A stretch of 55,576 nt of DNA, taken from a virus. Where the stretch lies: UHGV virus genome UHGV-0320443; one strand, 5' to 3'. Position 1 is the stretch's first letter, and each line of letters opens with the position of its first letter. The notes under the pieces were generated by a model. That model was not told the DNA's origin and made no database searches. It saw only the letters and a program-made list of their open reading frames with translations. This document shows, piece after piece, positions 29,692 through 53,595 of this stretch. Position numbers and translations under genes: made by a program.

Positions 29692-29898
29692 ATGACAAGA
29701 TCAAGCAAGCAAAAATATTTATTCGTAAGTTTAACAATCAAAAGCTTGTCGGAGGAAATTGACAATTTATATGAAGCTTACTATAACTGGGACATTGATT
29801 ACGATCGTGATCAAATTGCAAAAGTTGTTGAGGAAAAAGAGTTGAAGTTGGAAGAATTAATTGCAGAGCGCAAAGCAATCTTGAGAGGAGAATTATAA
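29692..29898 (+). CDS. hypothetical protein (68 aa)
   Basis: Good RBS. First gene after P1/P2. Confidence 0.5.
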   Translation: MTRSSKQKYLFVSLTIKSLSEEIDNLYEAYYNWDIDYDRDQIAKVVEEKELKLEELIAERKAILRGEL

Positions 29899-30344
29899 TG
29901 AAAACAACATTAAACAATGGCTTGGTCGTAGAGGTTCCTAACACTCGTACAAAGGTTAAAGAGATCGAAATGGTAGCAAAAGTAATTAATGTGGACGTTG
30001 ACAATTTAAATCGTAAGGAAGCTTTGGAAGTAGTTAAGAGCGAATTAGATAAACACCAACGAGTGCTTCTTCTAAATGCTCCAGCTAAGAAGGAAGTTAA
30101 ATTAAGCCCAGCGCAATATAAAAAGCAATTGTCATTAGCGAAATGGGCTAATCAAGATTATGTCGCAGAAGCAGTTGAAGCTTATAACAATGGAGAAATT
30201 TCAAAGTCAGAAGCAATTCGACAATTACATTTCTTGAACGTACCAAATAACTTCATTGCAAAATTAGTCGGAGCTCGTTACCAAATGGTCTTCAACGTAT
30301 TGGATCGCATGGAAGATGCAATGTCAGAAATGCAAGAATTTTAA
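29898..30344 (+). CDS. putative DNA-binding protein (N-terminal HeH/SAP-like motif, C-terminal HTH)
   Basis: PNTRTKVKEIEMVAKV (Rho_N/SAP-like) and ...NFIAKLVGARYQMVFNVL (HTH). It is a paralogue of the minus-strand ORF 35343-35873. Confidence 0.5.
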   Translation: MKTTLNNGLVVEVPNTRTKVKEIEMVAKVINVDVDNLNRKEALEVVKSELDKHQRVLLLNAPAKKEVKLSPAQYKKQLSLAKWANQDYVAEAVEAYNNGEISKSEAIRQLHFLNVPNNFIAKLVGARYQMVFNVLDRMEDAMSEMQEF

Positions 30345-30411
30345 TTGATAGAGAGGCTCAACAGAGCTTGAGCTTCTCCAATGAATTAAAATTTAAATAA
30401 AGAAAGAAGAG

Positions 30412-30843
30412 ATGAAAATGAAAAAATTAATCTTGCCAGCGAGCATCTTGCTCAACATAATGTTACTAGCGAGCGTCAACAGCTTGAGAAATTCAGCTGC
30501 GGAAGCTCAACAGGAACCGAAGGTCGTCACTAAAACTGAGTACGTGACCAAGGAAGTGGAAGTGCCAGTTTATTACGAAAAGGAAGTTGACTCGGGCGAG
30601 CACATTATTGAAAACGACAAAGTGAAAATTGAATACTTCGATCTAGATGATGGAGGCTTTGACATTCTATTCACAGCAAAAGAAGATTACAACGTGCTTC
30701 CAGTATTCACTCGCACAGATGACAAATTTTATCGCGACGCATATTTCACAGGAATGCAAAAGAACTTAGCAGAGATTCACGTAGACAACATGAACGAATT
30801 AAGTCCAGAGTTGAATTGGGACTTTAGCTGGGACAACGAATAA
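30412..30843 (+). CDS. secreted or membrane-anchored protein
   Basis: N-terminal signal/anchor MKMKKLILPASILLNIMLLASVNS with no lipobox Cys. RBS GAAAGAAGAGATG precedes it. Confidence 0.55.
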   Translation: MKMKKLILPASILLNIMLLASVNSLRNSAAEAQQEPKVVTKTEYVTKEVEVPVYYEKEVDSGEHIIENDKVKIEYFDLDDGGFDILFTAKEDYNVLPVFTRTDDKFYRDAYFTGMQKNLAEIHVDNMNELSPELNWDFSWDNE

Positions 30844-30900
30844 TAAAAAGAGAGGCCTGGGTCGGAGTTAATCCGGCTCAGAGCTAAGGAGGAAATTAAA

Positions 30901-31104
30901 ATGTTAACACACACTGAAAAGAAAAATATGACGATCGTAAGATCGATTGGGCAATATATTGTAGAGCATACTAAGGATCAACAAGGCTTCGAAGATTATC
31001 TAGAAGATGAAATGTTCCTTCGCGATTGCCGAGAGCTATTGCAAATGGCAGAAGAAATGCAAGCAGAGCGTGAATCGAAATTGGAGGAGAGCGAATATGA
31101 ATAA
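30901..31104 (+). CDS. hypothetical protein (67 aa)
   Basis: RBS AAGGAGG before the ATG. Confidence 0.5.
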   Translation: MLTHTEKKNMTIVRSIGQYIVEHTKDQQGFEDYLEDEMFLRDCRELLQMAEEMQAERESKLEESEYE

Positions 31105-31405
31105 GCGGGAGATTTACTTTAAAGCGCTCGAGGCAATTAAACCGGAAGAGCTGGTTTGGAAGAGCTACGAAGAAAATGAAATCTTGAAATGGGAATGGGC
31201 AGGTGCAAGAGGAGATTCGATCGGAGGGAAATTATTCTTCCGAATCGATCCTGTGACCAATGTCTTCGCCATGATGGGAATGGAAATTATAAATGGGTCG
31301 AACATTGATCGAGAGCCGATCTATATGACCATGATCGAAATTGAAGAACGGTCCCGAAATATGGACACGATCATAAAGTACCTGCTAGAATATATGGGGG
31401 CCTAG
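31097..31405 (+). CDS. hypothetical protein (102 aa)
   Basis: Start re-set to MNKREIYF (GGAGGAGAG RBS, ATGA overlap with the upstream stop). The track ORF starts at 31007. Confidence 0.5.
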   Translation: MNKREIYFKALEAIKPEELVWKSYEENEILKWEWAGARGDSIGGKLFFRIDPVTNVFAMMGMEIINGSNIDREPIYMTMIEIEERSRNMDTIIKYLLEYMGA

Positions 31406-37574: not shown

Positions 37575-38138
37575 TCAATAACCATTCTTCTGACGATCGA
37601 TATTCTCTTGCCATTTCTTATGATAGGCCTTCGTAATTTCATCTGCGGAAAGATTCATCATCTCGCCTAATTGCATGAAAGATACCCAAGACATTGCTAA
37701 GCATTTCATATCAGCCATAAGCCCTGCGGTCGTAATGAATGAAGTTAGTCGATTTACCATCGAAATAAACAGAGCATTTTTCGCGGAACTATCTCGAAGC
37801 GTGTATTGATCCAAAGGTCTACGAACCTCAACAAGCTCCGCTATTCTATTCGTAATTTTGTATGTGGGTGAACCATCCTCTAACTGATTAAAAATACTTA
37901 GGTAGAAGTGAATACAGTCAACATATTCTTCGACCAAAGTTTCCTTAGGCTCTTGATTCAGAGACCAGACTTTAAACCAACGAGCATCGTTAGCCATTTC
38001 AGCAAGCTCTACAACCAGAGCAGTTACAGTATTGACTAGACGCTGTTCACGCGTCCAGACAATACCATGTTGTTCAATTACCATATCATCTAATGCTCGC
38101 TGCTTTGTACGTAAGTCTTGAATATTAATTTCTAGCAT
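37575..38138 (-). CDS. all-alpha NTP pyrophosphatase (dimeric dUTPase / MazG-like)
   Basis: LVVELAEMANDAR and EEYVDCIHFYLSIF resemble the dUTPase_2 ExxE / ExxDxxHF motifs. Confidence 0.45.
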   Translation of the reverse strand: MLEINIQDLRTKQRALDDMVIEQHGIVWTREQRLVNTVTALVVELAEMANDARWFKVWSLNQEPKETLVEEYVDCIHFYLSIFNQLEDGSPTYKITNRIAELVEVRRPLDQYTLRDSSAKNALFISMVNRLTSFITTAGLMADMKCLAMSWVSFMQLGEMMNLSADEITKAYHKKWQENIDRQKNGY

Positions 38139-41145: not shown

Positions 41146-43713
41146 CTACCAATCTGTATCCATTACTGAGTTTAGATTTCCTGATTTGTCTTCATATAAT
41201 ATATCACCATTGTCAGCTACTTGCATCTCATATAGTTCTCCCCATGAAGGCCCTATTTCAGCATCCGCTAAGAAAGGCACTTCAGTATCTAATAGGACAC
41301 TAGCAGCTACTGGCATATAAGTTTGATGAATAATATATACTAGTCTAATTATTTCAGGATCTTTTTTCACCTCAGCAATTACAGAGTCATGTACCGTATT
41401 GACTAAGCGAGCAACTGTTTCGCCATACATTTCATTTAAGACTTCGATCTCTTCTTCAATACGACATACTGACCAAACCATACAGTCAGACGCTTCAGAT
41501 TGAATTGGGAAGTTAACAGCCTCGTTTTGTAGTCCATTTTTATTAGTATCAGTTACTAAGCCGAATGGACGAATTCTTCCTACAGGTGTTTCAAATACTC
41601 TACCTTCCAATGGATCTTGACGACGCTCTTCCATCCACTTTCTAGTTAATGGTTGTGGAGCATACCAGTCTTCAATCAATTGTTCAGCTTCTTTAATACT
41701 CATGCTATGTTCTGCTGCCAAAGTATAGGCACTGCGTCCATAAGGAATACCGAAGTTTACAGCCTTAGCTCGAACACGTTGTTCTTTAGTAAAGTTCGGT
41801 CCAAATAATTGAATAGAGATCTCATCATGTAAATCGGAACCTTTGTAGTAAACACCTTGTAACCAAGGGTCTCCCCCTTCAACAGACAAGACACGTAGCT
41901 CTGCTTGAGAGTAGTCATGCTGCATCAATACAAATCCATCCTCAGCATCAAAGATATTTTTAATGTCTGATTGTCGAGGAATATTATGGAAGTTCGGATC
42001 CGCAGATGATAATCGGCCTGTCTCTGTTCCATGAAGTTTAAAGGTTGTATGAGCTCGGTCAGTATCTTTATCGATGATCTTGTCAATGCCTAAGATGTAA
42101 GTGGAGTACATTTTCTTATCCTTCGCATAACTCAGTTTAGCATCGATAAATTGGATTGCATTGACATCCGTAAGTCTTTCCTTGTATATATTGAGGGAAT
42201 CAGCATCGGACGAGATCTTCTTCTTTTTGATAATAGGCTTGAGTTGCCAAACGTGAAACAACAAGAACCGAATATGCATGTAACTATTTGGATTAAATGT
42301 TTTCGGTACTTTAGTAGGTCCAGGCTGTTTCTTGCCTGCAGCCCTACCTTTCTTCAACCATTCATCATATTTAGATTTATCAGCCCAACGAGCATATTCA
42401 ACAGGATCCCAACCAGAAAGATTAGCTTTCTCTACTAAGTCCTCAAATAGTTTTTCTAGTCGTGGACCATATTCTGCTTTAAGTCTTTCAATATGCTCAC
42501 GATTGGTGTGGTGTCCATTGATTTCCATATGCATGTAATATTCACTAGCATCCATCAATAGATCTAGCTCTTTCTGAATCTTACGTCCACGCTTAACTTC
42601 TTCATCAAAGAAAGGTTTCATAGCATGATAGACTCTGAAAGTAGCATCTGTATCGACACCTTGATATTTGTACAAGATTGGTCTAGGAATATCAGCAAAG
42701 CTTTCTTTTACATATTTATGAGCGTGATGTTCCCACGGCTCGAAATTACAAAACTCAATAGCTACTTGTTCTAAGTCATGAGTACCTTTACGTACATCTA
42801 AACAATAATGATAAAGCATTGTATCAATGTCTGTTCTAGCACGAATACCATATTGAGCTCGGAAGAACTTATTATCAAACTTACCATTATGATAAAGCCA
42901 GGTAATATTTTTTGACTCGATAGTTGCTTTTAAATCATCATAGATAGATTCATCAAGAATTATTTCTTCAGGAATGACATATGATTCTCCTTCCTTATAA
43001 GTAAAGCCTTGACAAAGTAGTTTATCTTTTTTAAAATCAAATCCTCGAGTCTCAATATCACTCGCGACAATTCTTTTGTCCTTACGTAAAAATTGCAAGA
43101 ATGCTTTGGTCTTTTCTACGGTTGGTAACACGTATACTTTCGTCTGCGGAGCCTCGTTTTGTAAGCCCTTCTCACGTTGGATTAATCGTAAGGCCTTGTC
43201 TAGGTCGAGCAACCACGTTTGAAAAGTATTAGGTGATGTAGCTACATACTTTGGATGGAAAGTTAAAATCGTGTAGGCATTTAAACGACCATCCCATTTC
43301 CATTTACCTCGACCTTCCATAACACCAGCTTTGGTGATAGCTAATGATTTGCCTGCAGCATTCCCTAAAGCAATAATAACTTTTGGTTTAGCTCTACGTA
43401 AAACAGATTCCAACATCGGTCTGTAAGCAGAGATCTGCGAAGCAGTGGGTTCCTTCTCTGTATACATGTCAGTCGCATAAGTATAAAATATTCTTAGGTC
43501 CTTGATTGGCTTATCCAAAACTTCATTTAAATTATGCTGTACCATTTTAATGACTTTCTTGAATAAAACAGCAGCAGAAGCCTGAAAAGGCTCCTGTGCA
43601 TATATTTCTGTTAAAGTAGGTGAATCTCCAACTACAACTACGTCATACTCTTCTTTAGGTAAAACAGTTCTGAGTCGTTGTGCTTTTAGCTCTATTGGAG
43701 GCATGACAACCAC
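41146..43713 (-). CDS. family-A DNA polymerase with an N-terminal UDG-family-4-like domain and a 3'-5' exonuclease domain
   Basis: DYSQAELRVLS is Pol A motif A. 855 aa. The N-terminal roughly 200 aa show UDG-like features (VVGDSP...TFHPKY). Confidence 0.8.
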   Translation of the reverse strand: MVVMPPIELKAQRLRTVLPKEEYDVVVVGDSPTLTEIYAQEPFQASAAVLFKKVIKMVQHNLNEVLDKPIKDLRIFYTYATDMYTEKEPTASQISAYRPMLESVLRRAKPKVIIALGNAAGKSLAITKAGVMEGRGKWKWDGRLNAYTILTFHPKYVATSPNTFQTWLLDLDKALRLIQREKGLQNEAPQTKVYVLPTVEKTKAFLQFLRKDKRIVASDIETRGFDFKKDKLLCQGFTYKEGESYVIPEEIILDESIYDDLKATIESKNITWLYHNGKFDNKFFRAQYGIRARTDIDTMLYHYCLDVRKGTHDLEQVAIEFCNFEPWEHHAHKYVKESFADIPRPILYKYQGVDTDATFRVYHAMKPFFDEEVKRGRKIQKELDLLMDASEYYMHMEINGHHTNREHIERLKAEYGPRLEKLFEDLVEKANLSGWDPVEYARWADKSKYDEWLKKGRAAGKKQPGPTKVPKTFNPNSYMHIRFLLFHVWQLKPIIKKKKISSDADSLNIYKERLTDVNAIQFIDAKLSYAKDKKMYSTYILGIDKIIDKDTDRAHTTFKLHGTETGRLSSADPNFHNIPRQSDIKNIFDAEDGFVLMQHDYSQAELRVLSVEGGDPWLQGVYYKGSDLHDEISIQLFGPNFTKEQRVRAKAVNFGIPYGRSAYTLAAEHSMSIKEAEQLIEDWYAPQPLTRKWMEERRQDPLEGRVFETPVGRIRPFGLVTDTNKNGLQNEAVNFPIQSEASDCMVWSVCRIEEEIEVLNEMYGETVARLVNTVHDSVIAEVKKDPEIIRLVYIIHQTYMPVAASVLLDTEVPFLADAEIGPSWGELYEMQVADNGDILYEDKSGNLNSVMDTDW

Positions 43714-44510
43714 TCCTTGACTCTTTTAATGTTATTGTCTTCCAACTTTTCAAATCGTGATCCGATCTCGTGATGACGATGATCAGCACTACCAGGTGTT
43801 CTTGCTTGCGAATGACGAGGATCTTCTCTGAAGTCACGTCCATGCATTGCTTCCCAGTTTGGAAGAACAGAGTCAACCGAGCGAACATATTCAGCTACGT
43901 CAGGTTCAAATAAGAAGTCCATTGTAGACCAAGCACCTAATAAATGAATTTCTTTCCCAAGAGCTTTAGTTTCTTGTAGTAGATTGTTTTGCAATAATGC
44001 TCGCAGAATGAAATTACGACTATAGCCATCAGAGCCTTTTAAAGTACTAGTCACTTTAGGAATACCAATAGTATCAATTCGTGGTTCTTGTAATAATGTA
44101 GCATAGCAAGATAAGAATTCTTCTACATTAGCTCCTTGGGCAACAGCCATGAATTTATAAGGAGCATCATAATGTTTTTCTAATGCAGCAAAAGTTCTTT
44201 GCAATGACTCTTTTTTACGAGTAAAGGCATCTGGTAAAATAACTTCATCAGCACCAATAATTCCAGCAGCTTCTAATACTAAATCCATGTTCATAGCTTT
44301 CTTACCCATTTCAATCAAGCTATTATCTAAGATAATAAATTCTTTGTTAAAGTCCTTACGAGCTTTATAGGCCTTAGCATAAAATTTATCTTCAGCCAAT
44401 ACTAAGTGAGTAAGCGCCATTTGAATGCCATCAGAGTAATCCAATGATTGTTGCATCTTGAAAGGATCCATATGTCCGAATAAAGGTATGTTAGCGAATT
44501 TGATAGTCAT
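43692..44510 (-). CDS. dpdA: DpdA-like tRNA-guanine-transglycosylase-fold protein (candidate DNA 7-deazaguanine transglycosylase)
   Basis: 272 aa with ILDNSLIEMG and HLLGAW segments that resemble the TGT DSGG and LGxG regions. It sits inside the que gene neighbourhood. Confidence 0.4.
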   Translation of the reverse strand: MTIKFANIPLFGHMDPFKMQQSLDYSDGIQMALTHLVLAEDKFYAKAYKARKDFNKEFIILDNSLIEMGKKAMNMDLVLEAAGIIGADEVILPDAFTRKKESLQRTFAALEKHYDAPYKFMAVAQGANVEEFLSCYATLLQEPRIDTIGIPKVTSTLKGSDGYSRNFILRALLQNNLLQETKALGKEIHLLGAWSTMDFLFEPDVAEYVRSVDSVLPNWEAMHGRDFREDPRHSQARTPGSADHRHHEIGSRFEKLEDNNIKRVKEWLSCLQ

Positions 44511-45066
44511 AGATAGGTTGTCCTCCGGTTTCGATTTGATCTAAAGCAATTGCAAGCATACTTGCTGCAGTCATGTGTGAGCTATTTAGTTGAAGTACAG
44601 GAACTCCAGCGGCTCTTAGAATAGCCATATATTTTCGGTACTGGCCTAAGATATCTTCGATTTGATCAATGCCCACAACTTCTTCTTTCTCAGCAATAAA
44701 GCGTCGAGCAATATCATATACAGTAGCTTCGCAGTAGATAAACAATGGTTTAGTTTCAACTAACCAGTCAAAGATTTCACTAAACTGATCTATCAATTCA
44801 CTTGAAGGAGTACCTGCCATAACATGACTGTAAACTAATTCCTCTGGATAATTGAATCGATCCATTAAGAAACTTTTGTTATGAGAATCACAACGGTAGA
44901 TAATTGCATGAGCTGTATTGATAGCTTCTTCAGTACTTTTAGGTAGATCACCTTTATGATACTTATAATCACTATCTGCTAATGCTGTTGTCAAACCTTT
45001 AATCAATGTCGACTTACCTGTTTTGTCACAACCTGTTACAATAATATTAGAATACTTCTTCTTCAT
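44491..45066 (-). CDS. P-loop nucleotide kinase (thymidylate-kinase / dNMP-kinase-like)
   Basis: IIVTGCDKTGKSTL matches the TMK-type P-loop. Start re-set to MKKKYSN (AGGAGA RBS). Confidence 0.45.
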   Translation of the reverse strand: MKKKYSNIIVTGCDKTGKSTLIKGLTTALADSDYKYHKGDLPKSTEEAINTAHAIIYRCDSHNKSFLMDRFNYPEELVYSHVMAGTPSSELIDQFSEIFDWLVETKPLFIYCEATVYDIARRFIAEKEEVVGIDQIEDILGQYRKYMAILRAAGVPVLQLNSSHMTAASMLAIALDQIETGGQPIYDYQIR

Positions 45067-45367
45067 CTGTGCTATCTCCTGACTTTTCTTCTTCTTTCTC
45101 AAAAGGGACTCCCATAAGGACAATACATTCTCCAGCAAAGTCTATCACTCTCCCAATATATTGCTCGTTTTCTTCATTTAAATTGACTTTGCCTCCAACA
45201 TTATAGCTAGCGTCAGTTGAGATAATACGTACTTCCTCACTAGTTGATCCTTGTAGAATTCTGATTAATTCTTCCCGGTCAAAAACAGTTTCTTTACCAA
45301 ACATATTTTTTCTTGCAGGTCTTTCGATGTTGTAAGTATCTAAGCGTTTTGTAAATTTTTCAATCAA
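45047..45367 (-). CDS. hypothetical protein (106 aa)
   Basis: ORF only. Confidence 0.4.
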   Translation of the reverse strand: MIEKFTKRLDTYNIERPARKNMFGKETVFDREELIRILQGSTSEEVRIISTDASYNVGGKVNLNEENEQYIGRVIDFAGECIVLMGVPFEKEEEKSGDSTDEEEVF

Positions 45368-45647
45368 AACTAACTCCTCCTTCGGTTGATTGTAATCCTT
45401 TAACTAAAGTAGCATACTCAGCCCTGTCTTGATTAAGTTGTTGTTGTAAGGCTTCAGCTAAAATATTTGATCTTAGTTTACCGCCAAAGACAGTATAAAA
45501 ATTCATACCTTTAGGATGTCTTCGCTGCATATGAACTTTGATATCAATATCTTCACTTTTAAATGTTTCATCATCTAAAGCTTTTTCGATATCTTCCATT
45601 CTAATACTTATCTCACGTAATCTTTCCAGAATAGCTAATTGACTCAT
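45360..45647 (-). CDS. hypothetical protein (95 aa)
   Basis: ORF only. Confidence 0.4.
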   Translation of the reverse strand: MSQLAILERLREISIRMEDIEKALDDETFKSEDIDIKVHMQRRHPKGMNFYTVFGGKLRSNILAEALQQQLNQDRAEYATLVKGLQSTEGGVSFD

Positions 45648-46472
45648 TTAATCTGCCTCCTTATCTTTTGCCGTCAACCATTCATCTGCGGAGCCTAATT
45701 CGTTTCGCTCGTAAAGCTCTGCGTGTTTACGATCCCATACATCATCTAGGTTGATATTAAAGTTACGAGCTAGCTTGGTAATGTAGATCATTACATCTAC
45801 TAACTCATCTTGAAGATTGTTCCATTCATGTTCTGACCAGCCATCACGAATTAGTTTCTTACAACTGTTAGCTACTTCACCGGCTTCACCAGAAATACAC
45901 ATGGACATGTAAGCTAGATCTTGCATCTTAGCTCCATCAATTGGTTGCTCTGGATTGTAATCAGCTAGCTTGTCCATCAAGGTAACATCATTCATCATGT
46001 CAGTAAAAGTTAATTGATTAGGACGGTGTAAGTCTACAAACTTTTCAGGCTTTTGTGAAAAAGCTCTTATGTGTTGGAAGCCAGCAAAATCTAAATAGTT
46101 ACGATAGAATTCACCAACTTGATCTGGATTAATTCGTTCGTCAAAATAATCAGCCAAGCTAAAGGTAGGTGCTTCAATTGTTTCTCTAGCGTCCGATAAA
46201 GTCTTTGACCAGTCCCAAATTAAATATGCTGCATAGCCTTGTAAGGTAGTAAAGATAGCGTACGCTGATTGTTTTGTCTCTTCGATCGCTTTCATAGACA
46301 TTGTACTGAATCGATACCCTAAAGTACGTTGAATTAGTACAGGATAGTTACGAGGATTAATTCTCATTGAAATAGTTACACTATCCAATAATAGGCCTTC
46401 AGTTACCATTTCCTCGTACAGTCCTTTAATTCCTAAGTTTCGCAATCGATCTGACCATTGGTTTTGTTTCAT
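45648..46472 (-). CDS. MazG-like NTP pyrophosphohydrolase with an N-terminal extension
   Basis: The C-terminal GEAGEVANSCKKL...EHEWNNLQDELVDVMIYI matches the MazG E..E...E..D core. Confidence 0.5.
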   Translation of the reverse strand: MKQNQWSDRLRNLGIKGLYEEMVTEGLLLDSVTISMRINPRNYPVLIQRTLGYRFSTMSMKAIEETKQSAYAIFTTLQGYAAYLIWDWSKTLSDARETIEAPTFSLADYFDERINPDQVGEFYRNYLDFAGFQHIRAFSQKPEKFVDLHRPNQLTFTDMMNDVTLMDKLADYNPEQPIDGAKMQDLAYMSMCISGEAGEVANSCKKLIRDGWSEHEWNNLQDELVDVMIYITKLARNFNINLDDVWDRKHAELYERNELGSADEWLTAKDKEAD

Positions 46473-46494
46473 AATTTCTTTTCCCTCCGTTGTA

Positions 46495-46527
46495 AGAATA
46501 AAATAAGTATAGCTGGTTGCTATACTT
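46495..46527 (-). terminator. hairpin plus T-run after folE (operon terminator)
   Basis: AAGTATAGC-aacca-GCTATACTT (9-bp perfect stem) followed by TATTTTATTCTT on the minus strand. Confidence 0.4.
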
Positions 46528-46562
46528 ATATTATATGTTATTTAAATGATTTTGAATAGGTA

Positions 46563-47273
46563 CTACTTCATACTTAATAATGAAAGTAATTCCTGTTTTG
46601 CTGAAGCGTTCGCTGCAAAGACTCCTCTAACTGCAGATGTTGTAGTTGTTGCTCCACGTTTATGTGCGCCTCGGCCACACATGCAGTAATGCTCTGCGTT
46701 AATAATAACGGCAGATCCGATTGGTTGTAATACATCTTCAATGGCGTCAATGACTTCCGTTGTAAGTTTTTCTTGAACTTGGAATCGTTTTGCATATCCA
46801 TCCAATGTTCTAGCGAATTTGCTAAGCCCAGCAATTTTATTTGAAGGAATGTAGGCAATGCTAGCTGTTCCGAAAAACGGAGCAAAGTGGTGCTCACACA
46901 TAGAGTTGAATGGAATGTCTTTGATAAGGACAATGTCTCGGCCGTTAACGTTAGCTTCAAAATCTTTGAGCAAGTGTTGCTTAGGGTCTTCGCCATATCC
47001 CTCTGTGTACTCAAGGAAGGCTTTAAGCACTCGGAAGGGCGTCTCTTGTAATCCATCACGTCTAAAATCATCTCCACATATAGAAATTAAAGCATGCAAT
47101 CCTTGTAAGGCAACATCAATAGGATTATCATGATCTTTATCAGCACGCATTTCTGATACCGTAGGAAAATCATAAGCAGCCTCTTTAGGTAATCTTGGGC
47201 GGATTAATGCTTCCAGTTTTTCCTCTTGTTCCTTAGTTAATAAATTGTCTTTAAAAATATTCTCTACTGTCAT
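46563..47273 (-). CDS. folE: GTP cyclohydrolase I
   Basis: MCEHHFAPFFG active-site motif. Start re-set to MTVENIF (GAGGAG RBS). Confidence 0.8.
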   Translation of the reverse strand: MTVENIFKDNLLTKEQEEKLEALIRPRLPKEAAYDFPTVSEMRADKDHDNPIDVALQGLHALISICGDDFRRDGLQETPFRVLKAFLEYTEGYGEDPKQHLLKDFEANVNGRDIVLIKDIPFNSMCEHHFAPFFGTASIAYIPSNKIAGLSKFARTLDGYAKRFQVQEKLTTEVIDAIEDVLQPIGSAVIINAEHYCMCGRGAHKRGATTTTSAVRGVFAANASAKQELLSLLSMK

Positions 47274-47277
47274 GTAA

Positions 47278-48123
47278 CTATACTCCTCTCGCATTTGCAT
47301 ATACTAGTGTGTGTAATTGTGGTAATGGACGTACGTTGTTAAAGTCGGGATCTTCTAGAACTTTATCCCATAGCCAATGTAGCTTCTCTAATAACCGTTC
47401 CGATACATCACCTGCGGAAGTAGAGTCTTCGTTTCCTACTGATACGTACATTGGTTGAGTTCCGCACTTATCTTCATAACGTTTCACTACTGTCCGAGCA
47501 TATTCGAAATCTTCATCATTAAAGATAACTACTTTCATAGTCCAGTTAACGTTATTTTCATTCAAGCGATCGACAATTTTGTCAAGTACTCGCCAATTAG
47601 TTTTCATTAGTGAACTAGGTGGTTTAGGACTCATTACAAAGTCATCAATGTGTACGAACCAATCCTGCCAGTTCACTCCTTGTGTTTCGACAGAGAATTT
47701 GAATTCATGTTCTTGTTTCATAATCCGAATAAATTCAGCCATCTCTTCGCCTACTAGAGAAGGGTTTCCTCCAGTCAGAGTGATATGCTTACAATTAGTT
47801 CCTCCACTAGAAAGAGCTAATACTTTTTGTTCTAGTTCACGTGGAGTGATCCATTCAGGTTCTTGAGATCCATCCCAAGTAAATTTAGAGTCACACCATG
47901 AACAACTATATTGGCAGAAGGCGGTACGAACAAAAATAGTCTTTTGTCCGATAACCATACCTTCACCTTGAATCGTAGGACCAAAACATTCCATGTAAGG
48001 AATTAAACCTTTACGTTTTTCCATCTTTAATCGATCAGGTCTATAATTTTTAGGACTTTCATTATAGGCTTCGATCTTTTCTTTCAACTTTGGGTTGCTA
48101 ATGTTTTGAGTACTAGGTTTCAT
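47278..48123 (-). CDS. queE: 7-carboxy-7-deazaguanine synthase (radical SAM)
   Basis: FGPTIQGEG...AFCQYSCSWCDSKFTW shows the CxxxCxxC cluster and QueE N-terminal signature. Confidence 0.8.
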   Translation of the reverse strand: MKPSTQNISNPKLKEKIEAYNESPKNYRPDRLKMEKRKGLIPYMECFGPTIQGEGMVIGQKTIFVRTAFCQYSCSWCDSKFTWDGSQEPEWITPRELEQKVLALSSGGTNCKHITLTGGNPSLVGEEMAEFIRIMKQEHEFKFSVETQGVNWQDWFVHIDDFVMSPKPPSSLMKTNWRVLDKIVDRLNENNVNWTMKVVIFNDEDFEYARTVVKRYEDKCGTQPMYVSVGNEDSTSAGDVSERLLEKLHWLWDKVLEDPDFNNVRPLPQLHTLVYANARGV

Positions 48124-48132
48124 AATGTCCTC

Positions 48133-48690
48133 CTAATCAATCATGACTTCATCTGGATCATATTCAATTCCTTTGTGTTTGTGGATAGCATAAACCACAA
48201 GAGCACCAATACCTTGAAGAACTGTTTTAACAATAATTTGTCCGATGATAGCATTAGGTACTTGATCCCAAGTTAAAACACCCATTCCTAAAGGTGATAG
48301 ACCTATCAAGACAAAGATAGAACTGTCAATTGTTCCACCAAACAAACCACTAACAAAGATTCGTACGTACATTGGTTGCTTCAATCGAGTATAAACTTCG
48401 GTGTCCATTGATTCGGAAAAGATGAATGAGATCGCAGAAGCGAAGACCACCCATAAAGTATCCCCTAAGAAAGCAGAAACAATAGCGCTCAAGATCAACG
48501 CAGCTACAATAATTGAATAAGTCTTCTTACGTCCAAATTTGTTTTGAACTAAGTCACGAAGGATAAAAGTAAATCCGATAAAGAAAGTTCCAAACGGTAC
48601 AAAGAAAGGCCCGAATGCTACTGGTGCGAAAGTTGCTGTTACTACGTTTGCTGCTGTGATCCCTAATAAGTATAAAAGTATTCTAATCAT
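48133..48690 (-). CDS. yhhQ: YhhQ-family (DUF165) membrane transporter, putative 7-deazaguanine precursor importer
   Basis: 185-aa multi-TM protein with the YhhQ-like start ...ANVVTATFAPVAFGPFFVPFGTFF...ILRDLVQNKFG. Embedded in the que operon with 4-nt overlaps. Confidence 0.55.
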   Translation of the reverse strand: MIRILLYLLGITAANVVTATFAPVAFGPFFVPFGTFFIGFTFILRDLVQNKFGRKKTYSIIVAALILSAIVSAFLGDTLWVVFASAISFIFSESMDTEVYTRLKQPMYVRIFVSGLFGGTIDSSIFVLIGLSPLGMGVLTWDQVPNAIIGQIIVKTVLQGIGALVVYAIHKHKGIEYDPDEVMID

Positions 48691-49214
48691 TTTTGTTCTC
48701 CATTCGTAGTTAGATTGAAATTAGTATCCATAAAGTTTTCGCCATCAAAGAACACAACATTTTCGAACATGTTTTCACTGATAGATAAAATACTTTTGAA
48801 CATGTAGTTGCGATAGTCGTCACGATGAATCATAGCAGAACCAGTAGGCGTCTCCCATAAAGCAACTCGCCATACAGGTAGATCATGTTTATGACACCAC
48901 CACATAATGAACAAGGCCATATTTTCCGCAGTCGTCCTAAAGCCAAAGCGAACAAATTTTGTATCGATAGATTCCATAACTGGTTCATTGCCTTGAGCTA
49001 AGAATGCATGATCTAAATGATCTAGCAATGGTTTGATCTTTTCTTTAACATCAGTAAAGTCCATTACCATACCACTTGACGACCCACGATGCTCTAATTC
49101 GCCTTTCATTGATACTTGTAATTTGTAAGTATGGCCATGCACATTAGCACATTTACCATTATGTCCTACTAGTTGGTGAGCTGAATCAAAGGTAAATTCT
49201 TTTGTGATTATCAT
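48687..49214 (-). CDS. queD: 6-carboxy-5,6,7,8-tetrahydropterin synthase
   Basis: TKEFTFDSAHQL...CANVHGHTYKL contains the QueD/PTPS motifs. The start overlaps the queC stop (TAATG). Confidence 0.8.
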   Translation of the reverse strand: MIITKEFTFDSAHQLVGHNGKCANVHGHTYKLQVSMKGELEHRGSSSGMVMDFTDVKEKIKPLLDHLDHAFLAQGNEPVMESIDTKFVRFGFRTTAENMALFIMWWCHKHDLPVWRVALWETPTGSAMIHRDDYRNYMFKSILSISENMFENVVFFDGENFMDTNFNLTTNGEQK

Positions 49215-49954
49215 TAGAATAATCCTCCTTGATAAGCATAAGATTGACAACCTGCCCAATCAATATAGTTTTCATATTTAACTGGATCTACAATATGATT
49301 GTATTTGAAAGCATTAACACGATCAATACATGTACCACAATGACCACATTGATCTTCATGCCCTTCGTAACAAGAACGAGTCAAGTGTAAAGGAGCGCCT
49401 AATTCTAATCCTAAAGTAACTACACCAGCTTTGTTTTTCATTAATAGAGGAGCATCAAGATTTACTTTATGTCCTGAGCCTGCAAAGATCGCACGATCCA
49501 TTGCTTTGTAAAATTCTGGAGTACAGTCCGGATAAGCTGAACCAGCTGCATCATCTGAATGAGCTCCATAAACAACTTTGCTAGCACCAATGCTATATGC
49601 ATATGCTGCGGCTTGACTTAACATTAAACCGTTTCGGAAAGGAACATATGAATCAACAGTACCTTCACCATTTTCTTCAATAATTTCTGCATAGCTCTTA
49701 TGAGATAATTCTCCATTGCCTTTAAGCAAAGTGCTATCACTCTTTGAAAACAGCTGCGGATCTACTGTTAGTACTACGTGCTCCACGCCATATTCTTTTG
49801 CTACGTTTTTTGCATTCTCGATCTCATTGTCATGTTTTTGACCATAAGAAAAAGACAGTGCGTGGACATTATCAGGTCCTACTTTCTTTACACTGTCTGC
49901 CAAACACACCGTGGAGTCCAAGCCACCACTTAATAATACTACTACTTTTGTCAT
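49214..49954 (-). CDS. queC: 7-cyano-7-deazaguanine synthase
   Basis: VVLLSGGLDSTVCLA PP-loop and C-terminal CGHCGTC zinc motif. Start re-set to MTKVVV (GAGGA RBS). Confidence 0.85.
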   Translation of the reverse strand: MTKVVVLLSGGLDSTVCLADSVKKVGPDNVHALSFSYGQKHDNEIENAKNVAKEYGVEHVVLTVDPQLFSKSDSTLLKGNGELSHKSYAEIIEENGEGTVDSYVPFRNGLMLSQAAAYAYSIGASKVVYGAHSDDAAGSAYPDCTPEFYKAMDRAIFAGSGHKVNLDAPLLMKNKAGVVTLGLELGAPLHLTRSCYEGHEDQCGHCGTCIDRVNAFKYNHIVDPVKYENYIDWAGCQSYAYQGGLF

Positions 49955-50581
49955 ATTCCTTTTCCTCATTTCATTTTTTATTTTATCCTGGTGGTTTGTT
50001 TCACCAGTCTAACTGGACCGGAGAGGAATCGCACCTCTCAATTAACTAAAGTAATATATGAGCGCTCACTACATTACCGTCGATCCAAAAAGAAAAACTA
50101 AATAGAAACCGTTACCTGAGAGAGATGTTGGGAGCTCATACCGCGAATTTGTGTTTTGTGATGAGTATGAGACTTATTTTTTAGAAAAAACTCAGGAGAG
50201 CTCCCTTGAGCGGATTTATTACACGGGACTAAAGCTCTACCGTGATCAGTCTTTCCTGACAGCCAATAACTACTGCACACTTGTACTCAATGTGATGCGG
50301 TGAGCAAGTTATACGAGCTTGCTCCATTGATGCAAATGCGACATACAACTTTATTTATTATTCGTACAACAAATGACTTTTCCCCAACGCGCTTGAGTTG
50401 ATTAATCATTTATTTTGTAGAGAGTTTTCCCAGTAACGATTTCATATTTAGTTTTCAATGTTGCGCACTATGATTGAAAAAGTTGAATTTCATGTATTTG
50501 ATTGAGACAGAAAGGCAAAGTTAGTCAACCAGAGTGTTACGCGAACTTAGTTATTTGATGGCCATCATTTAACTATACTTA
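49955..50581 (-). ncRNA. long structured 5' leader / candidate regulatory RNA of the que operon
   Basis: About 600 nt between a good promoter and queC with no credible ORF, GC above background and several stable hairpins (for example 50021-50039, 49988-50007, 50130-50205). Confidence 0.3.
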
Positions 50582-50610
50582 ATTATAACATATAATCATC
50601 ATGACCTCAA
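50582..50610 (-). promoter_or_regulatory. promoter TTGAGG-17-TATAAT directly after the primase stop
   Basis: On the minus strand, the -35 is at 50610-50605 and the -10 at 50587-50582. Confidence 0.45.
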
Positions 50611-50625
50611 CGGGCGAAATTCGTG

Positions 50626-53595
50626 TTATTTCATTTTAATGATTTGTAGAATCTCGTCCTCACGCTTCGACCGGAACTCCCGCAGTTGTTCATTCCATTT
50701 ATGAGTGACTCGATACACACTAGAGTTACCACCAGTATGAACGTAAATGATTTGCAAGTCAATCATGATCTTAATAGTTGCCTTAGCTTCTTCTGTATCA
50801 ATATTAAGTGTTTCTTCCAATGTCTTAGAAGTAAAGCTACCTTTGATAGAATCAACAATATTGACAACTTCTGAATTGATATGGAAGAAACGGAAAATTT
50901 TCTTCTGATCGTCTCCAGTAACAATATGACGACGTTGTTCGTCTTTAGCCATTGCTCGATAGCCTAATGTAGGATTGCTATAAATCTTTTCTAAGAAATT
51001 AGCTACGAATTCTACATGCTCCGATTTGACAATGACTTTTTCATATGTCTCATCAGTACTAAACAATCTTGCAGCACAGGCTACAGCAAGTCGACTTAAT
51101 TTAACTTTCATTGAGTTACGTTCTACAATAGATAAAGATGACCCATCATATTCGCGACCCATATTGGAAGCTTCTTTTAATAATCGACTATAAGCTTCAG
51201 CAGTAAATTCTACCTTATCATTTTCAGGTGTCAAGTAACCTTTAGCATTTCTTGACCAAGCCCACATAATTAATCGTTGACATAAGTCCTTAGTATATTT
51301 AACTGGTCCTTTAGGTAAATGAGATGTGTCTCTATTAATGATAGATTCATCGACCTCATCACGTCCAACTCCCATAGCAAAATCAAAACGAGCGATATCC
51401 TCAGACCGTCCTACTAAATCGATAATTGCTTTAGCACCGTATGGATAGTCCTTCATGTGTTTAGCACCATTACCTACACGAGGGTTAGAAATCCAAATTG
51501 ATCTTGTCCTAGCATATGCCTGACCAATCTTAGCTTTATTGATTTCTACGATACCACGAGAACGCATAGAAGACATAGCACCAAAGTCATCTTTAGATAA
51601 TCCAGATGCTTCATCTAAAATTAATAACTTACGATCGTTCTGTGGAAACTTACCCCAGGTGATTGTCCATTGATCATTACCCATTTGTTGTACAGTTCCT
51701 GTTAAACCTGTCAAACGAGTGTTCTCAACTTCAATCATATCTCCAGCTTGATAATATTCAGCCATGTACTCAGCTGTCTCAGATTTACCAGTACGTGGAT
51801 CTCCAATAGTTAACAATTCTAACCAGCCACGAGCCTGCAATTTATTATCTAAATGGAAACGCAATACAGAATGATATACCAAATCATAAGCAATGACTAA
51901 TTCTTTCCTGTCCCAGATACGAGTGTAAAGTTCTAAGTCGCTAGCAATTTCATACATCTTGTCTTCCACAGTTTGATCATCTGCGGGTTGAAAGATCTTG
52001 AGCTCTTCGATTTCTTCGGGTGTAGGTTTAAAGGCATCCATCTCTTCACGTATCGGTGTAGCCTTGGTAACTAGGTAAGCTACGTAACCCATGTCAGGAT
52101 CTGATGTACGCAATGCTTGCAATTTGTACACTCGGTTAGAAGTAACTGACTCCCTTGGCTTGTCATAAACATGGTAAGCTCTTTGTACATCAACTGAATC
52201 ATCACTAATGGTTCTGGAGAATTTTTCTACACTAGGACCAATATGCAATACTTCAATGTTGTAAGACTCAATTTCTTCAAACTTGTACATGTTATTATTC
52301 TTAGGTACACCTAAAGCTTCTTTCAATAACATTTCTCGTTTGTCATCGCTGACACCGGCAAATTTCATTGTGTCTCGAGTGATCTCAAAATTAATATCAA
52401 AGCCTTCTTTTAATTGCTTTTCAGTTAGACTACGTAGTACACATTGTCTACCAGGTACTAATTCAGGGTCATAATAATCAACAGACACTCGTAGTACTTT
52501 TGGTGCAGTAAAGATATTAGAACTTCGCCCAATAATCATAGCTTCGATCTCAATAGCTTTGTTATTGAATGCTGGATTGTAAGTTGCCTCACTAAGGCTT
52601 GTAGGAATAAATTCTGATTCTGCTAATGTACCTTTGTTGAGTTCTTTTAAATCTTCTTCAACAGTAGGGACAAATAATTTAGACTTAGTAAGTACTTCAT
52701 CATAGAAGTCATCTTTAGTTTTTCCTAGCTCAACAATAAAGTCAGTAAAATCTATATGTGGTTGAGGGTACTCACAAATCCGAACTTCGGCAGCTACCTC
52801 ACGTAAGTTTAATGCCTCACGTTCAGCACCTGATCTACCAGCATCGTCACCGTCGTAACAAATAAATACTTTCTTATCTCTAAAGTAGTGATCCATACAA
52901 CCACCCTTAGGCCATTGTCCAGCACCACCAGTTTGTGTGATTGAAGGAATGCCTAATTGTCTAGCTAATGCTGCATCGGTCTCACCTTCGAATATAACGA
53001 CCCAACCGACATTAATGAAGTCATGATCTAAAGGCCACAGATAAGATTTCGTATATGCATTCTTAGTATTAATAAATTTTGCTTTCTTAGCACCCATGCG
53101 ATACTTTCTTATATTAATAAGTTTTCCATCTAATGAATAAACAGGTATTGTATAACGCTGTGTGTCCGGATCATATCCTATTTGTCTTTGCTTGATTGTG
53201 TTTAAAGTAAATCCGCGTTTATTCATAAATTTTTCTAGGAATTTAGGGTGTTGAAGTAATGTTTGATGATATTCTTCAGCTATCGATTCATCCATAGGAA
53301 ACGCGAGTTTTCCTTTGCGTTCGAATTGCTGTTGTAGCTTAATTGATTCACCAAGAGGGAAATCATACCATTCTACTAACCAAGCAGCGATATCACCTCC
53401 GCCACCATTTTGTCCTGCATCACAGGCTTTACAGTTCCATAATCCGGTAGATAAATTTATATGCATTGAAGGGGTAGTGTCTCCGTGAAAAGGACAACAA
53501 ACTGCTACTTCTTCGTCTCCATCCATCGGCATCGGAAGTCCTGGTATATAGTCCTGATAAAATCGTCTATACTTGAACTTTGTTTCTTCTGCCAT
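50626..53595 (-). CDS. bifunctional DNA primase (zinc-finger + TOPRIM) / helicase
   Basis: CCPFHGDTTPS...CKAC (CHC2 zinc finger), VVIFEGETDA...FICYDGDDAGRSG (TOPRIM) and the C-terminal P-loop GDPRTGKS. 989 aa. Confidence 0.8.
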   Translation of the reverse strand: MAEETKFKYRRFYQDYIPGLPMPMDGDEEVAVCCPFHGDTTPSMHINLSTGLWNCKACDAGQNGGGGDIAAWLVEWYDFPLGESIKLQQQFERKGKLAFPMDESIAEEYHQTLLQHPKFLEKFMNKRGFTLNTIKQRQIGYDPDTQRYTIPVYSLDGKLINIRKYRMGAKKAKFINTKNAYTKSYLWPLDHDFINVGWVVIFEGETDAALARQLGIPSITQTGGAGQWPKGGCMDHYFRDKKVFICYDGDDAGRSGAEREALNLREVAAEVRICEYPQPHIDFTDFIVELGKTKDDFYDEVLTKSKLFVPTVEEDLKELNKGTLAESEFIPTSLSEATYNPAFNNKAIEIEAMIIGRSSNIFTAPKVLRVSVDYYDPELVPGRQCVLRSLTEKQLKEGFDINFEITRDTMKFAGVSDDKREMLLKEALGVPKNNNMYKFEEIESYNIEVLHIGPSVEKFSRTISDDSVDVQRAYHVYDKPRESVTSNRVYKLQALRTSDPDMGYVAYLVTKATPIREEMDAFKPTPEEIEELKIFQPADDQTVEDKMYEIASDLELYTRIWDRKELVIAYDLVYHSVLRFHLDNKLQARGWLELLTIGDPRTGKSETAEYMAEYYQAGDMIEVENTRLTGLTGTVQQMGNDQWTITWGKFPQNDRKLLILDEASGLSKDDFGAMSSMRSRGIVEINKAKIGQAYARTRSIWISNPRVGNGAKHMKDYPYGAKAIIDLVGRSEDIARFDFAMGVGRDEVDESIINRDTSHLPKGPVKYTKDLCQRLIMWAWSRNAKGYLTPENDKVEFTAEAYSRLLKEASNMGREYDGSSLSIVERNSMKVKLSRLAVACAARLFSTDETYEKVIVKSEHVEFVANFLEKIYSNPTLGYRAMAKDEQRRHIVTGDDQKKIFRFFHINSEVVNIVDSIKGSFTSKTLEETLNIDTEEAKATIKIMIDLQIIYVHTGGNSSVYRVTHKWNEQLREFRSKREDEILQIIKMK

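Follow-up and report, generated by a model that had tools for sequence, protein, structure and literature searches.

How does a phage that encodes the synthesis of a modified guanine bring this base into its DNA? The question is raised by the virus genome UHGV-0320443, a stretch of 55,576 nucleotides (nt), hereafter the window, in which folE, queE, queD and queC, a gene for a YhhQ-type membrane protein and an open reading frame (ORF) of 272 amino acids (aa) are found close to a DNA polymerase gene (Table 1; coordinates are positions in the window, and the genes of the region all lie on the minus strand). A first-pass annotation had interpreted the first six of these genes as a module that makes 7-cyano-7-deazaguanine (preQ0) and places a 7-deazaguanine in phage DNA. 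The genes were identified by Pfam and PHROG profile scans, by motifs read in the translations, with PADLOC and with phmmer, and all six were recovered where the annotation had placed them and on the same strand, by Pfam and PHROG matches or, for the 272-aa ORF, by its fold. The gene identities together with the tRNA-guanine transglycosylase (TGT) fold of the 272-aa ORF support this interpretation, and a 7-deazaguanine DNA-modification module is in our view very probable. It would swap guanine in virion DNA for a 7-deazaguanine, most likely preQ0, and so allow the phage to escape restriction. The window represents a phage without a prior sequence record that carries a known kind of 7-deazaguanine gene set; what is new, to a modest degree, is the occurrence of a DpdA3 transglycosylase and a complete preQ0 pathway in one phage, probably of the Bacillota.

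Modification of DNA with 7-deazaguanines shields phages from restriction enzymes and Cas9 (PMC6884629, PMC10484667), and host glycosylases dedicated to 7-deazaguanine modifications target them in turn (bioRxiv 10.1101/2025.10.29.685425). Among the insertases DpdA3 is the least understood: it is linked with complete replacement of G and has never been reconstituted (PMC10516641).

The 272-residue protein and the DpdA3 subfamily

The 272-aa ORF had been taken for a DpdA-like enzyme, a proposal that stands or falls with the presence of a TGT/DpdA fold, and the structural evidence bears it out. The AlphaFold2 model has a mean predicted local distance difference test (pLDDT) score of 92.3, and in a Foldseek search with it against the PDB the top 50 matches were all TGT or DpdA, with probability 1.00. 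By sequence, the protein had no Pfam match (including PF01702) and no PADLOC match, a PDB search with the protein alone returned nothing, and among 65 proteins found as homologues none has a Pfam domain except one fusion. The residues L33, H35, D62, N63, S64, E67, D94, P151, H189, L191, G192 and D213 are invariant in the family, and in the AlphaFold2 model they sit where consecutive beta-strands of the barrel have their C-terminal ends. Across 49 sequences D62 and D94 do not vary, and they are collinear with the TGT/DpdA aspartates. The only relevant PDB chain reached by the family profile was that of bDpdA (7UI4; E 0.01), an enzyme that inserts preQ0 into DNA. In this alignment Q125 of the (Q/H)G motif falls on His181, L191 of the HLLG motif on Leu236 and D213 on Asp256, the latter being the nucleophile in bDpdA numbering (PMC10164549). 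Among the TGT/DpdA aspartates D95, D130 and D256, only D256 was aligned by sequence (to D213); the N-terminal half aligned to no PDB chain, also when its profile was searched separately, and because of this we infer, rather than read from an alignment, that D62 and D94 are equivalent to bDpdA aspartates.

The protein resembles bDpdA of Salmonella Montevideo and the TGTs in its TIM barrel, in the collinear order of its putative catalytic aspartates and in its HLLG base-stacking motif. It is unlike these enzymes of 390-ish aa in its length of 272 aa, in having no PF01702 match, no insertions Ins1-3 and Ins8 and no DpdB ATPase partner, and in the zinc site: there are only two Cys and no Cys cluster, so the site of TGT and bDpdA (CxCxxC...H) is lacking.

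The assignment to a subfamily follows from phage relatives. With tblastn, the protein was linked to 'hypothetical' genes of Bacillus phage BSP7, of Weizmannia phage Youna2 and of MA9V-3, a phage of Chryseobacterium. The last of these shares 43% identity at the protein level with CGPG_00065 of Cellulophaga phage phiST, which is the founding member of DpdA3 (PMC10516641). The family of the window protein aligned with the DpdA3 of phiST, MA9V-3 and immuto over 205 columns (hhalign, 99.9%, E 3.7e-37), BLASTP reached immuto gp206, annotated as DpdA, at E 2e-16, and the local family hidden Markov model (HMM) reached CP220 gp056 at 5.5e-38, whereas hhalign against the DpdA1 of CAjan gave no detectable similarity (probability 1.4%). 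On these profile and pairwise comparisons the protein is assigned to the DpdA3 subfamily.

A TIM-barrel enzyme of some other function, with a likeness to DpdA at the level of the fold only, might also escape the Pfam TGT model and the PADLOC DpdA models and reach 7UI4 at no better than E 0.01. Such an enzyme would hardly be expected to align with bDpdA at the columns of the nucleophile and the base-stacking residues, to keep the TGT order D...D...(Q/H)G...HLLG...D, to share a family with immuto gp206 and phiST CGPG_00065 and to be tightly linked to que genes, and we consider this explanation very unlikely.

In metagenomes the family comprises 5112 clusters at 50% identity (E<=0.001) and is without a Pfam model. 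A pattern-seeded scan of one genome per species from 185,579 bacterial and archaeal species found no relative, which fits a family borne by lytic phages. Isoelectric point (pI) and Cys content were considered as a means to discriminate enzymes acting on DNA from those acting on small molecules, but proved uninformative (median pI of DpdA3 5.7), because CAjan DpdA1, for which action on DNA is proven, has an acidic pI as well (6.26) and no CxCxxC. In the Bacillus phages BSTP5, BSTP8, BSTP10 and BSTP12 (MW354669, MW354676, MW354677, MW354678), the DpdA3 homologue has been annotated as integrase/recombinase, hypothetical protein, polynucleotide kinase and NadR, which are probably errors.

Synthesis genes, putative transporter and predicted product

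QueC, QueD, QueE, FolE and the YhhQ family, for which profile searches had been suggested as a check, were all matched (Pfam E values from 4.9e-10 to 1.8e-60). FolE, QueD, QueE and QueC are all encoded with their catalytic motifs intact. In its gene content the window agrees with 'group 2' of Hutinet 2019, the preQ0-type clusters that have a DpdA beside FolE, QueD, QueE and QueC and lack an amidotransferase. The canonical signature of preQ0 synthases consists of SGGxDS, YxQxHxxE, VPxRN, YPDC and C(x)8CxxCxxC (PMC13329287), and QueC of the window has all five motifs (SGGLDS, YGQKHDNE, VPFRN, YPDC and, as Cys4 zinc motif, C(x)7CxxCxxC), the first Cys spacer being of 7 residues, not 8. With only 251 aa, it carries no Gat fusion. 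An alternative ATG at 49954 has a better ribosome-binding site (RBS) and coincides with the end of the region delimited in the first-pass annotation. The CxxxCxxC motif of QueE reads CQYSCSWC. The YhhQ-type protein scored 63.3 bits against a cut-off of 27.2 for Vut_1, shows about six hydrophobic segments (judged by eye from the sequence) and is 33% identical to CAjan gp41, a 'putative preQ0 transporter' (E 2e-18).

The genes had been described as coupled by overlaps of 1-4 nt. This holds for QueC/QueD, where in the junction TAATG a single nt belongs both to the stop of QueC and to the ATG of QueD at 49214, and for QueD/YhhQ (ATGA, 4 nt), but not for YhhQ/QueE, which are separated by a 9-nt spacer with the stop codon inside the RBS, nor for QueE/FolE, which either overlap by 23 nt, if FolE begins at ATG 47300 (no RBS), or are separated by a gap of 4 nt, if it begins at ATG 47273 (GAGGAG). 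The RBS-preceded ATG 47273 is the likely start.

Judged by the gene content, the modified base is most likely preQ0 (dPreQ0). A phmmer search of the window ORFs of at least 50 aa revealed no homologue of QueF, QueT, DpdN or DpdL; the Pfam and PHROG scan, which covered about 30 proteins across 31.8-55.1 kb (the structural half was not profile-scanned), gave no QueF/ArcS-type match; and the PADLOC Dpd models matched none of ten nearby proteins. These absences, together with that of a Gat fusion, lead to dPreQ0 as the predicted product. The same prediction in the first-pass annotation is reasonable in view of the canonical QueC signature and since neither QueF nor a Gat-QueC was detected, but its suggestion of an unrecognised DpdC, which would give dADG, finds no support in the PADLOC search. 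Because the enzyme is a DpdA3, the replacement of G is likely to be high or complete. Palindromes containing G/C are not avoided in the window (median observed/expected 0.98-1.0; GATC 282 versus 249 expected), which is weak evidence, compatible with a globally protected genome.

The que genes might instead serve translation, by raising the queuosine of host tRNA or the supply of preQ0 while phage DNA stays unmodified, as was considered by Hutinet 2019 for phages with que genes but no DpdA (PMC6884629). Here, however, the window carries a gene of the DpdA family, one that overlaps the gene of the polymerase, but no tRNA genes; phmmer detected no QueF among the ORFs of at least 50 aa, and the profile scan of the same 30 or so proteins across 31.8-55.1 kb gave no match to QueF, QueA, QueG/H or a tRNA-TGT. 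We give this explanation hardly any credence, less even than that of an unrelated barrel enzyme.

In Escherichia phage CAjan, folE, queD, queE, queC, yhhQ and dpdA lie beside the polymerase gene and dPreQ0 accounts for ~25-30% of G, and a yhhQ deletion mutant modifies its DNA normally (PMC7544227). The window resembles CAjan in the full preQ0 pathway, in a short YhhQ-type transporter within the cluster, in the lack of QueF or an amidotransferase, and in a DpdA gene located just upstream of that of the DNA polymerase. It differs in that CAjan uses DpdA1, has a clamp gene between dpdA and the polymerase gene and no kinase- or MazG-like gene that we could find, and in that the CAjan modification is partial and motif-specific, unlike the outcome predicted for DpdA3. 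A transporter in a phage que cluster is not new, since CAjan has yhhQ, phage Dp-1 has QueT at the position equivalent to that of the window transporter, and YhhQ homologues in phages were noted previously by Hutinet 2019 (PMC6884629). A DpdA gene placed ~2 kb downstream has likewise been described.

Complete replacement of G is known from Campylobacter phage CP220 (dADG), Cellulophaga phage phiST (dDG) and vB_FspM_immuto_2-6A, a phage of Flavobacterium (fdPreQ1), and the three DpdA3 phages assayed to date all show full replacement (PMC10516641). The window shares with them the DpdA3 subfamily, a gene for a P-loop kinase-like protein at dpdA3 or close to it, and a nearby NTP pyrophosphatase (MazG, PRA-PH or HD), which in the window is a putative one. 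In these phages the pathway ends at 7-carboxy-7-deazaguanine (CDG) or ADG, or DpdL is added, or QueF and DpdN (PMC10516641), whereas the window has a canonical QueC with nothing downstream, so that preQ0 itself is the predicted base. The hosts also differ, being Campylobacterota and Bacteroidota for the three phages and probably Bacillota here.

Proposed guanine exchange, on DNA or on nucleotides

In the mechanism that we propose, FolE, QueD, QueE and QueC would convert GTP via dihydroneopterin triphosphate (H2NTP), carboxytetrahydropterin (CPH4) and CDG to preQ0, which the YhhQ-type permease could supplement with imported precursor. DpdA3 would then exchange guanine for preQ0 through the double-displacement chemistry of TGT and DpdA, with Asp213 as the putative nucleophile and Asp62 as general acid/base, and with Asp94 and Gln125 reading the base. 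In line with the default in the literature, the DNA of the phage would be the substrate of DpdA3, during replication or after it, because all relatives that have been characterised use a polynucleotide. For this full statement, a preQ0 module together with DpdA3 action on DNA at or after replication, we see the chances as evenly divided.

Several points weigh against it. The sequence alignment with bDpdA, with its E value of 0.01, covers the C-terminal half only, and DpdA3 has neither the zinc site nor the insertions of TGT and bDpdA. No DpdA3 has been shown to be active, reconstitution in E. coli was unsuccessful, and the authors of that study judged DpdA3 'unlikely to insert preQ0' (PMC10516641). 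Finally, kinase- and MazG-like genes are coupled to dpdA3, for which a route purely at the DNA level offers no obvious role.

The last point concerns the stretch of 2 kb from FolE to DpdA3, in which the first-pass annotation passed over four genes: one is MazG-like, two are small ORFs, and the fourth encodes a P-loop kinase-like protein. Along the series of MazG-like, 95-aa, 106-aa and kinase-like genes, DpdA3 and PolA, the successive genes abut or overlap by 0, 8, 20, 20 and 13 nt; this chain of overlapping genes indicates co-transcription or co-translation of DpdA3 with the polymerase. The putative MazG-like domain, of the all-alpha NTP pyrophosphohydrolase type, occupies the C-terminal ~100 aa of its protein, while the N-terminal ~165 aa matched nothing assignable. 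Its Pfam match of 18.4 bits lies under the cut-off of 22, and the PHROG match is the stronger one (Table 1); the metal motif E196xxE199-23 residues-E223xxD226 is invariant in four homologues. An AlphaFold model of this protein was unusable (pLDDT 49, 4 sequences). A second all-alpha NTP pyrophosphatase, dUTPase_2 (PF08761, E 4.4e-32), is encoded 6 kb downstream of DpdA3 at 37575-38138 (minus strand), so that the phage has two members of the NTP pyrophosphatase superfamily. In the kinase-like protein both the Walker A motif GCDKTGKS and the DRF motif are conserved; its family profile reached YorR (2AXP) at 2.2e-15, thymidylate kinases at 3e-8 and deoxyguanosine kinase at 8e-8, and it is 31% identical to BSP7_056 (E 8e-29). 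The two small ORFs had no Pfam, PHROG or PADLOC match.

With these genes the same pathway and product could be combined with a guanine swap before replication, on nucleotides. The MazG-like protein would hydrolyse dGTP to dGMP, depleting dGTP and feeding the substrate; DpdA3 would put preQ0 on dGMP or dG; the P-loop kinase would rephosphorylate dPreQ0-MP, the host NDP kinase would complete the triphosphate and PolA would incorporate dPreQ0TP. Replacement before replication occurs in the hydroxymethylcytosine (hmC) system of phage T4, with dCTPase, dCMP hydroxymethylase and dNMP kinase, and in the Z-genome phages with MazZ, PurZ and DatZ. By analogy the window may likewise bring together an NTP pyrophosphatase, an enzyme that alters the base, a dedicated kinase and the polymerase of the phage, but there is no homologue here of the base-altering enzymes of those phages. 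A nucleotide-level route would yield complete replacement, as in T4 and the Z-genome phages, and complete replacement is also what the DpdA3 phages with known replacement share with them. It would fit the failed reconstitution of DpdA3 alone in E. coli and the structure of DpdA3 as a bare barrel without a zinc subdomain. For Campylobacter phages, a modified dGTP has been proposed and the ADG nucleoside was found in infected cells (relayed by PMC6884629 and PMC10516641).

The neighbourhoods of dpdA3 in other phages bear on the choice between the two levels. Loci were gathered from IMG/VR (38), metagenome contigs (6) and isolate genomes (6), their ORFs were searched with locally built HMMs, and after dereplication at 70% DpdA3 identity there remained 33 loci in which dpdA3 has 1.5 kb or more to either side; 13 DpdA1 loci served as control. 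PolA lies directly beside dpdA3 in 21 of the 33 loci, and que genes accompany it in 24. By HMM, a kinase-like gene is adjacent in 13 loci and within 1.5 kb in 14, and with phiST CGPG_00066 and its MA9V-3 counterpart, which Pfam assigns to AAA_18, the total rises to 16. The dpdA3 of CP220 is flanked by gp055 (HD plus AAA_33) and gp057 (AAA_28; both by Pfam), and immuto has gp203, so that kinase-like genes are found in all three phages with proven complete replacement. They fall into at least three groupings (a YorR-like group by sequence and the Pfam families AAA_28 and AAA_18) and occur on either side of dpdA3; those of immuto and phiST showed no pairwise similarity to the window kinase, the link being at the level of family or fold only. 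CGPG_00066 was described as without homologues in other deazaguanine phages (PMC10516641); contrary to this, its Pfam assignment makes it an AAA_18 P-loop kinase-like protein. A MazG or PRA-PH gene occurs within 2.5 kb in 15 of the 33 loci, and CP220 has its HD domain.

The DpdA1 controls gave no kinase and no MazG match at E<=0.01. The difference in kinase linkage (16/33 versus 0/13) has a Fisher p of 0.0015, which becomes 0.03 when the controls enter as the ~7 lineages that they represent, in a control set that is small and phylogenetically narrow and with counts that are not phylogenetically independent. Genes of the nucleoside deoxyribosyltransferase (NDT) family lie just upstream of dpdA3 in loci L008 and L010, phosphoribosyltransferases are found in 3 loci, and natural fusions of NDT (PF05014) with DpdA3 occur in L011 (7001-8125; P0022, 374 aa) and L028 (10013-11128; 372 aa). 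With this linkage, and with the three proven phages among the 16 loci, a nucleotide-level, pre-replicative route may be considered.

On the other side, a mononucleotide is not a known substrate of any enzyme in the TGT superfamily, and DpdA3 would be the first to use one. No kinase-like neighbour is present in 17 of the 33 loci, including most phages of the salvage type described below, and 7 loci have no nucleotide-level partner of any kind. Replication modules of phages often contain MazG and kinases anyway, the kinase might serve end-healing or a general dNMP supply instead, and post-replicative insertion is what PMC10516641 argues for. A search of the newer literature on a pre-replicative DpdA3 route found nothing. 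We regard the exchange on nucleotides in this phage as a tentative alternative, less probable than action on DNA, and give only slightly less credence to the wider proposition that DpdA3-type modules, that of the window included, may make a modified deoxynucleotide before replication. The conserved linkage of DpdA3 to kinase-like, MazG-like and deoxyribosyltransferase genes makes the pre- versus post-replicative question testable.

The census also places the transporter. YhhQ is present in 11 of the 12 loci that lack FolE, QueD and QueE, compared with 2 of the 16 full-pathway loci, of which the window is one (p = 5e-5); YhhQ thus tracks salvage. Beyond the near-identical Logan contig L003, the closest relative of the window is L008 (DpdA3 47% identical), with the order QueC-YhhQ-NDT-275 aa-kinase-DpdA3-UDG-PolA and no FolE, QueD or QueE. 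The link of YhhQ with salvage and the architecture of L008 suggest that the window transporter may derive from an ancestor of the salvage type. A widespread architecture of YhhQ, MazG, DUF3310, DpdA3 and PolA, with or without QueC and without FolE, QueD and QueE, was seen in the IMG/VR and Logan contigs L010, L012, L013, L015, L020-L027, L030 and L035; in the salvage loci, QueC and a transporter without CDG synthesis pose the question which base gets imported.

Related phages, polymerase and other features of the window

The gene order primase-QueC-QueD-QueE-FolE-small ORFs-kinase-like-DpdA3-PolA is shared with BSP7 and Youna2; the BSP7 group further includes BSTP5, BSTP8, BSTP10, BSTP12 and BSP19, and all these genomes have the size of the window (about 53-56 kb). 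Similarity to BSP7 and Youna2 is limited to proteins (DpdA3 33-41% identical, kinase 31%), with none at the nucleotide level. The clusters of these two phages, unlike that of the window, contain neither YhhQ nor a MazG-like gene, and their PolA has no uracil-DNA glycosylase (UDG) domain; BSP7_052 was considered as a hidden YhhQ and rejected on comparison. The annotation of their DpdA3 genes is either 'hypothetical' or wrong. The Youna2 paper is silent on queuosine genes, restriction and DNA modification, and a literature search found no paper on BSP7. Together, the window, BSP7 and Youna2 represent a compact DpdA3 system of ~55-kb Bacillota phages with a full preQ0 pathway, for which the BSP7 group offers Bacillus subtilis as a tractable host.

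Table 1. Features of the cluster in the window and, in the last four rows, kinase-like genes near dpdA3 in other loci (coordinates of the respective locus)
Feature	Position	Strand	Evidence or remark
Family A DNA polymerase (PolA)	41146..43704	-	PF00476 E 1.5e-66; PF01612 E 2.5e-17; PF03167 E 4.3e-12
DpdA3-family 7-deazaguanine transglycosylase	43692..44510	-	minimal TGT-fold TIM barrel; 13-nt overlap with polymerase gene
P-loop nucleoside/nucleotide-kinase-like protein, 191 aa	44491..45066	-	phrog_761 thymidylate kinase E 8.9e-11; 20-nt overlap with DpdA3 gene
ORF, 106 aa	45047..45367	-	TTG start with strong GAAGGAGG RBS, or 85 aa from ATG 45304
ORF, 95 aa	45360..45647	-	abuts stop codon of MazG-like gene
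MazG-like protein, 274 aa	45648..46472	-	phrog_229 E 1.8e-13; Pfam MazG E 0.0026
Hairpin, 11-bp stem	46503..46529	.	in 90-nt gap after FolE; terminator-like on both strands
FolE, GTP cyclohydrolase I	46563..47300 or 47273	-	PF01227 E 1.8e-60; CEHH motif
QueE, radical-SAM CDG synthase	47278..48123	-	PF04055 E 4.9e-10; phrog_2076 E 3.1e-51
YhhQ/COG1738 (Vut_1) membrane protein, putative 7-deazaguanine precursor transporter	48133..48690	-	PF02592 E 4.2e-17
QueD, CPH4 synthase	48687..49214	-	PF01242 (PTPS) E 2.3e-30; CxxxHGH motif = CANVHGH
QueC, preQ0 synthase	49214..49969	-	PF06508 E 1.7e-58; phrog_1550 E 4.9e-71
Promoter-like site	50582..50610	-	TTGAGG-17-TATAAT, extended TG; 10/12 consensus match only; ~610 nt upstream of QueC
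phiST CGPG_00066	L005 7520-7999		kinase-like
Kinase-like gene	L004 6189-6659		kinase-like
CP220 gp055	L052 7820-8851		kinase-like
CP220 gp057	L052 9771-10313		kinase-like

PolA, the last gene of the overlapping chain, consists of an N-terminal UDG-superfamily domain (PF03167) followed by the 3'-5' exonuclease and polymerase domains. A UDG-PolA fusion also occurs in the relative L008 and is not present in the polymerases of BSP7, L010 and L013. The hairpin after FolE may be a terminator or attenuator that divides the cluster into two units, a preQ0 operon and a unit from MazG to PolA.

Upstream of queC, a non-coding stretch of ~650 nt with a strong promoter-like site (Table 1) and several hairpins (49970-50625, minus strand) separates it from the stop of a primase-helicase gene. 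A preQ1 riboswitch or other known RNA was sought there and rejected, as Rfam gave no match at the gathering threshold over the whole of the window and none at E<=1 between 49900 and 50700; the folding z-scores are only about -2.1. The adjacent gene (50626-53595, minus strand) encodes a single protein of 989 aa that unites the zinc ribbon of DnaG with a Toprim domain and a P-loop helicase of the MCM type; the relative L008 has two genes instead, one for the primase and one for the MCM part.

For the source of the window, the 6.3-kb region was compared at the nucleotide level with 50,697 phage records and gave zero matches, and a protein of 99% identity was found on a 45-kb Logan contig. The host is probably Bacillus-like or another member of the Bacillota; prophage copies that could identify it were sought in genomes of bacteria and archaea by a pattern-seeded scan, and none was found. 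A scan of the window gave zero tRNA genes and zero terminal direct repeats. Its length of 55,576 bp is close to those of the complete BSP7 (55,455 bp) and Youna2 (52,903 bp) genomes, and it may thus be a whole phage genome. The only plus-strand ORFs lie at 29898-31405, the rest of the genome being on the minus strand, and GC and AT skew change sign at 30-32 kb, which may mark a candidate divergent early or regulatory region.

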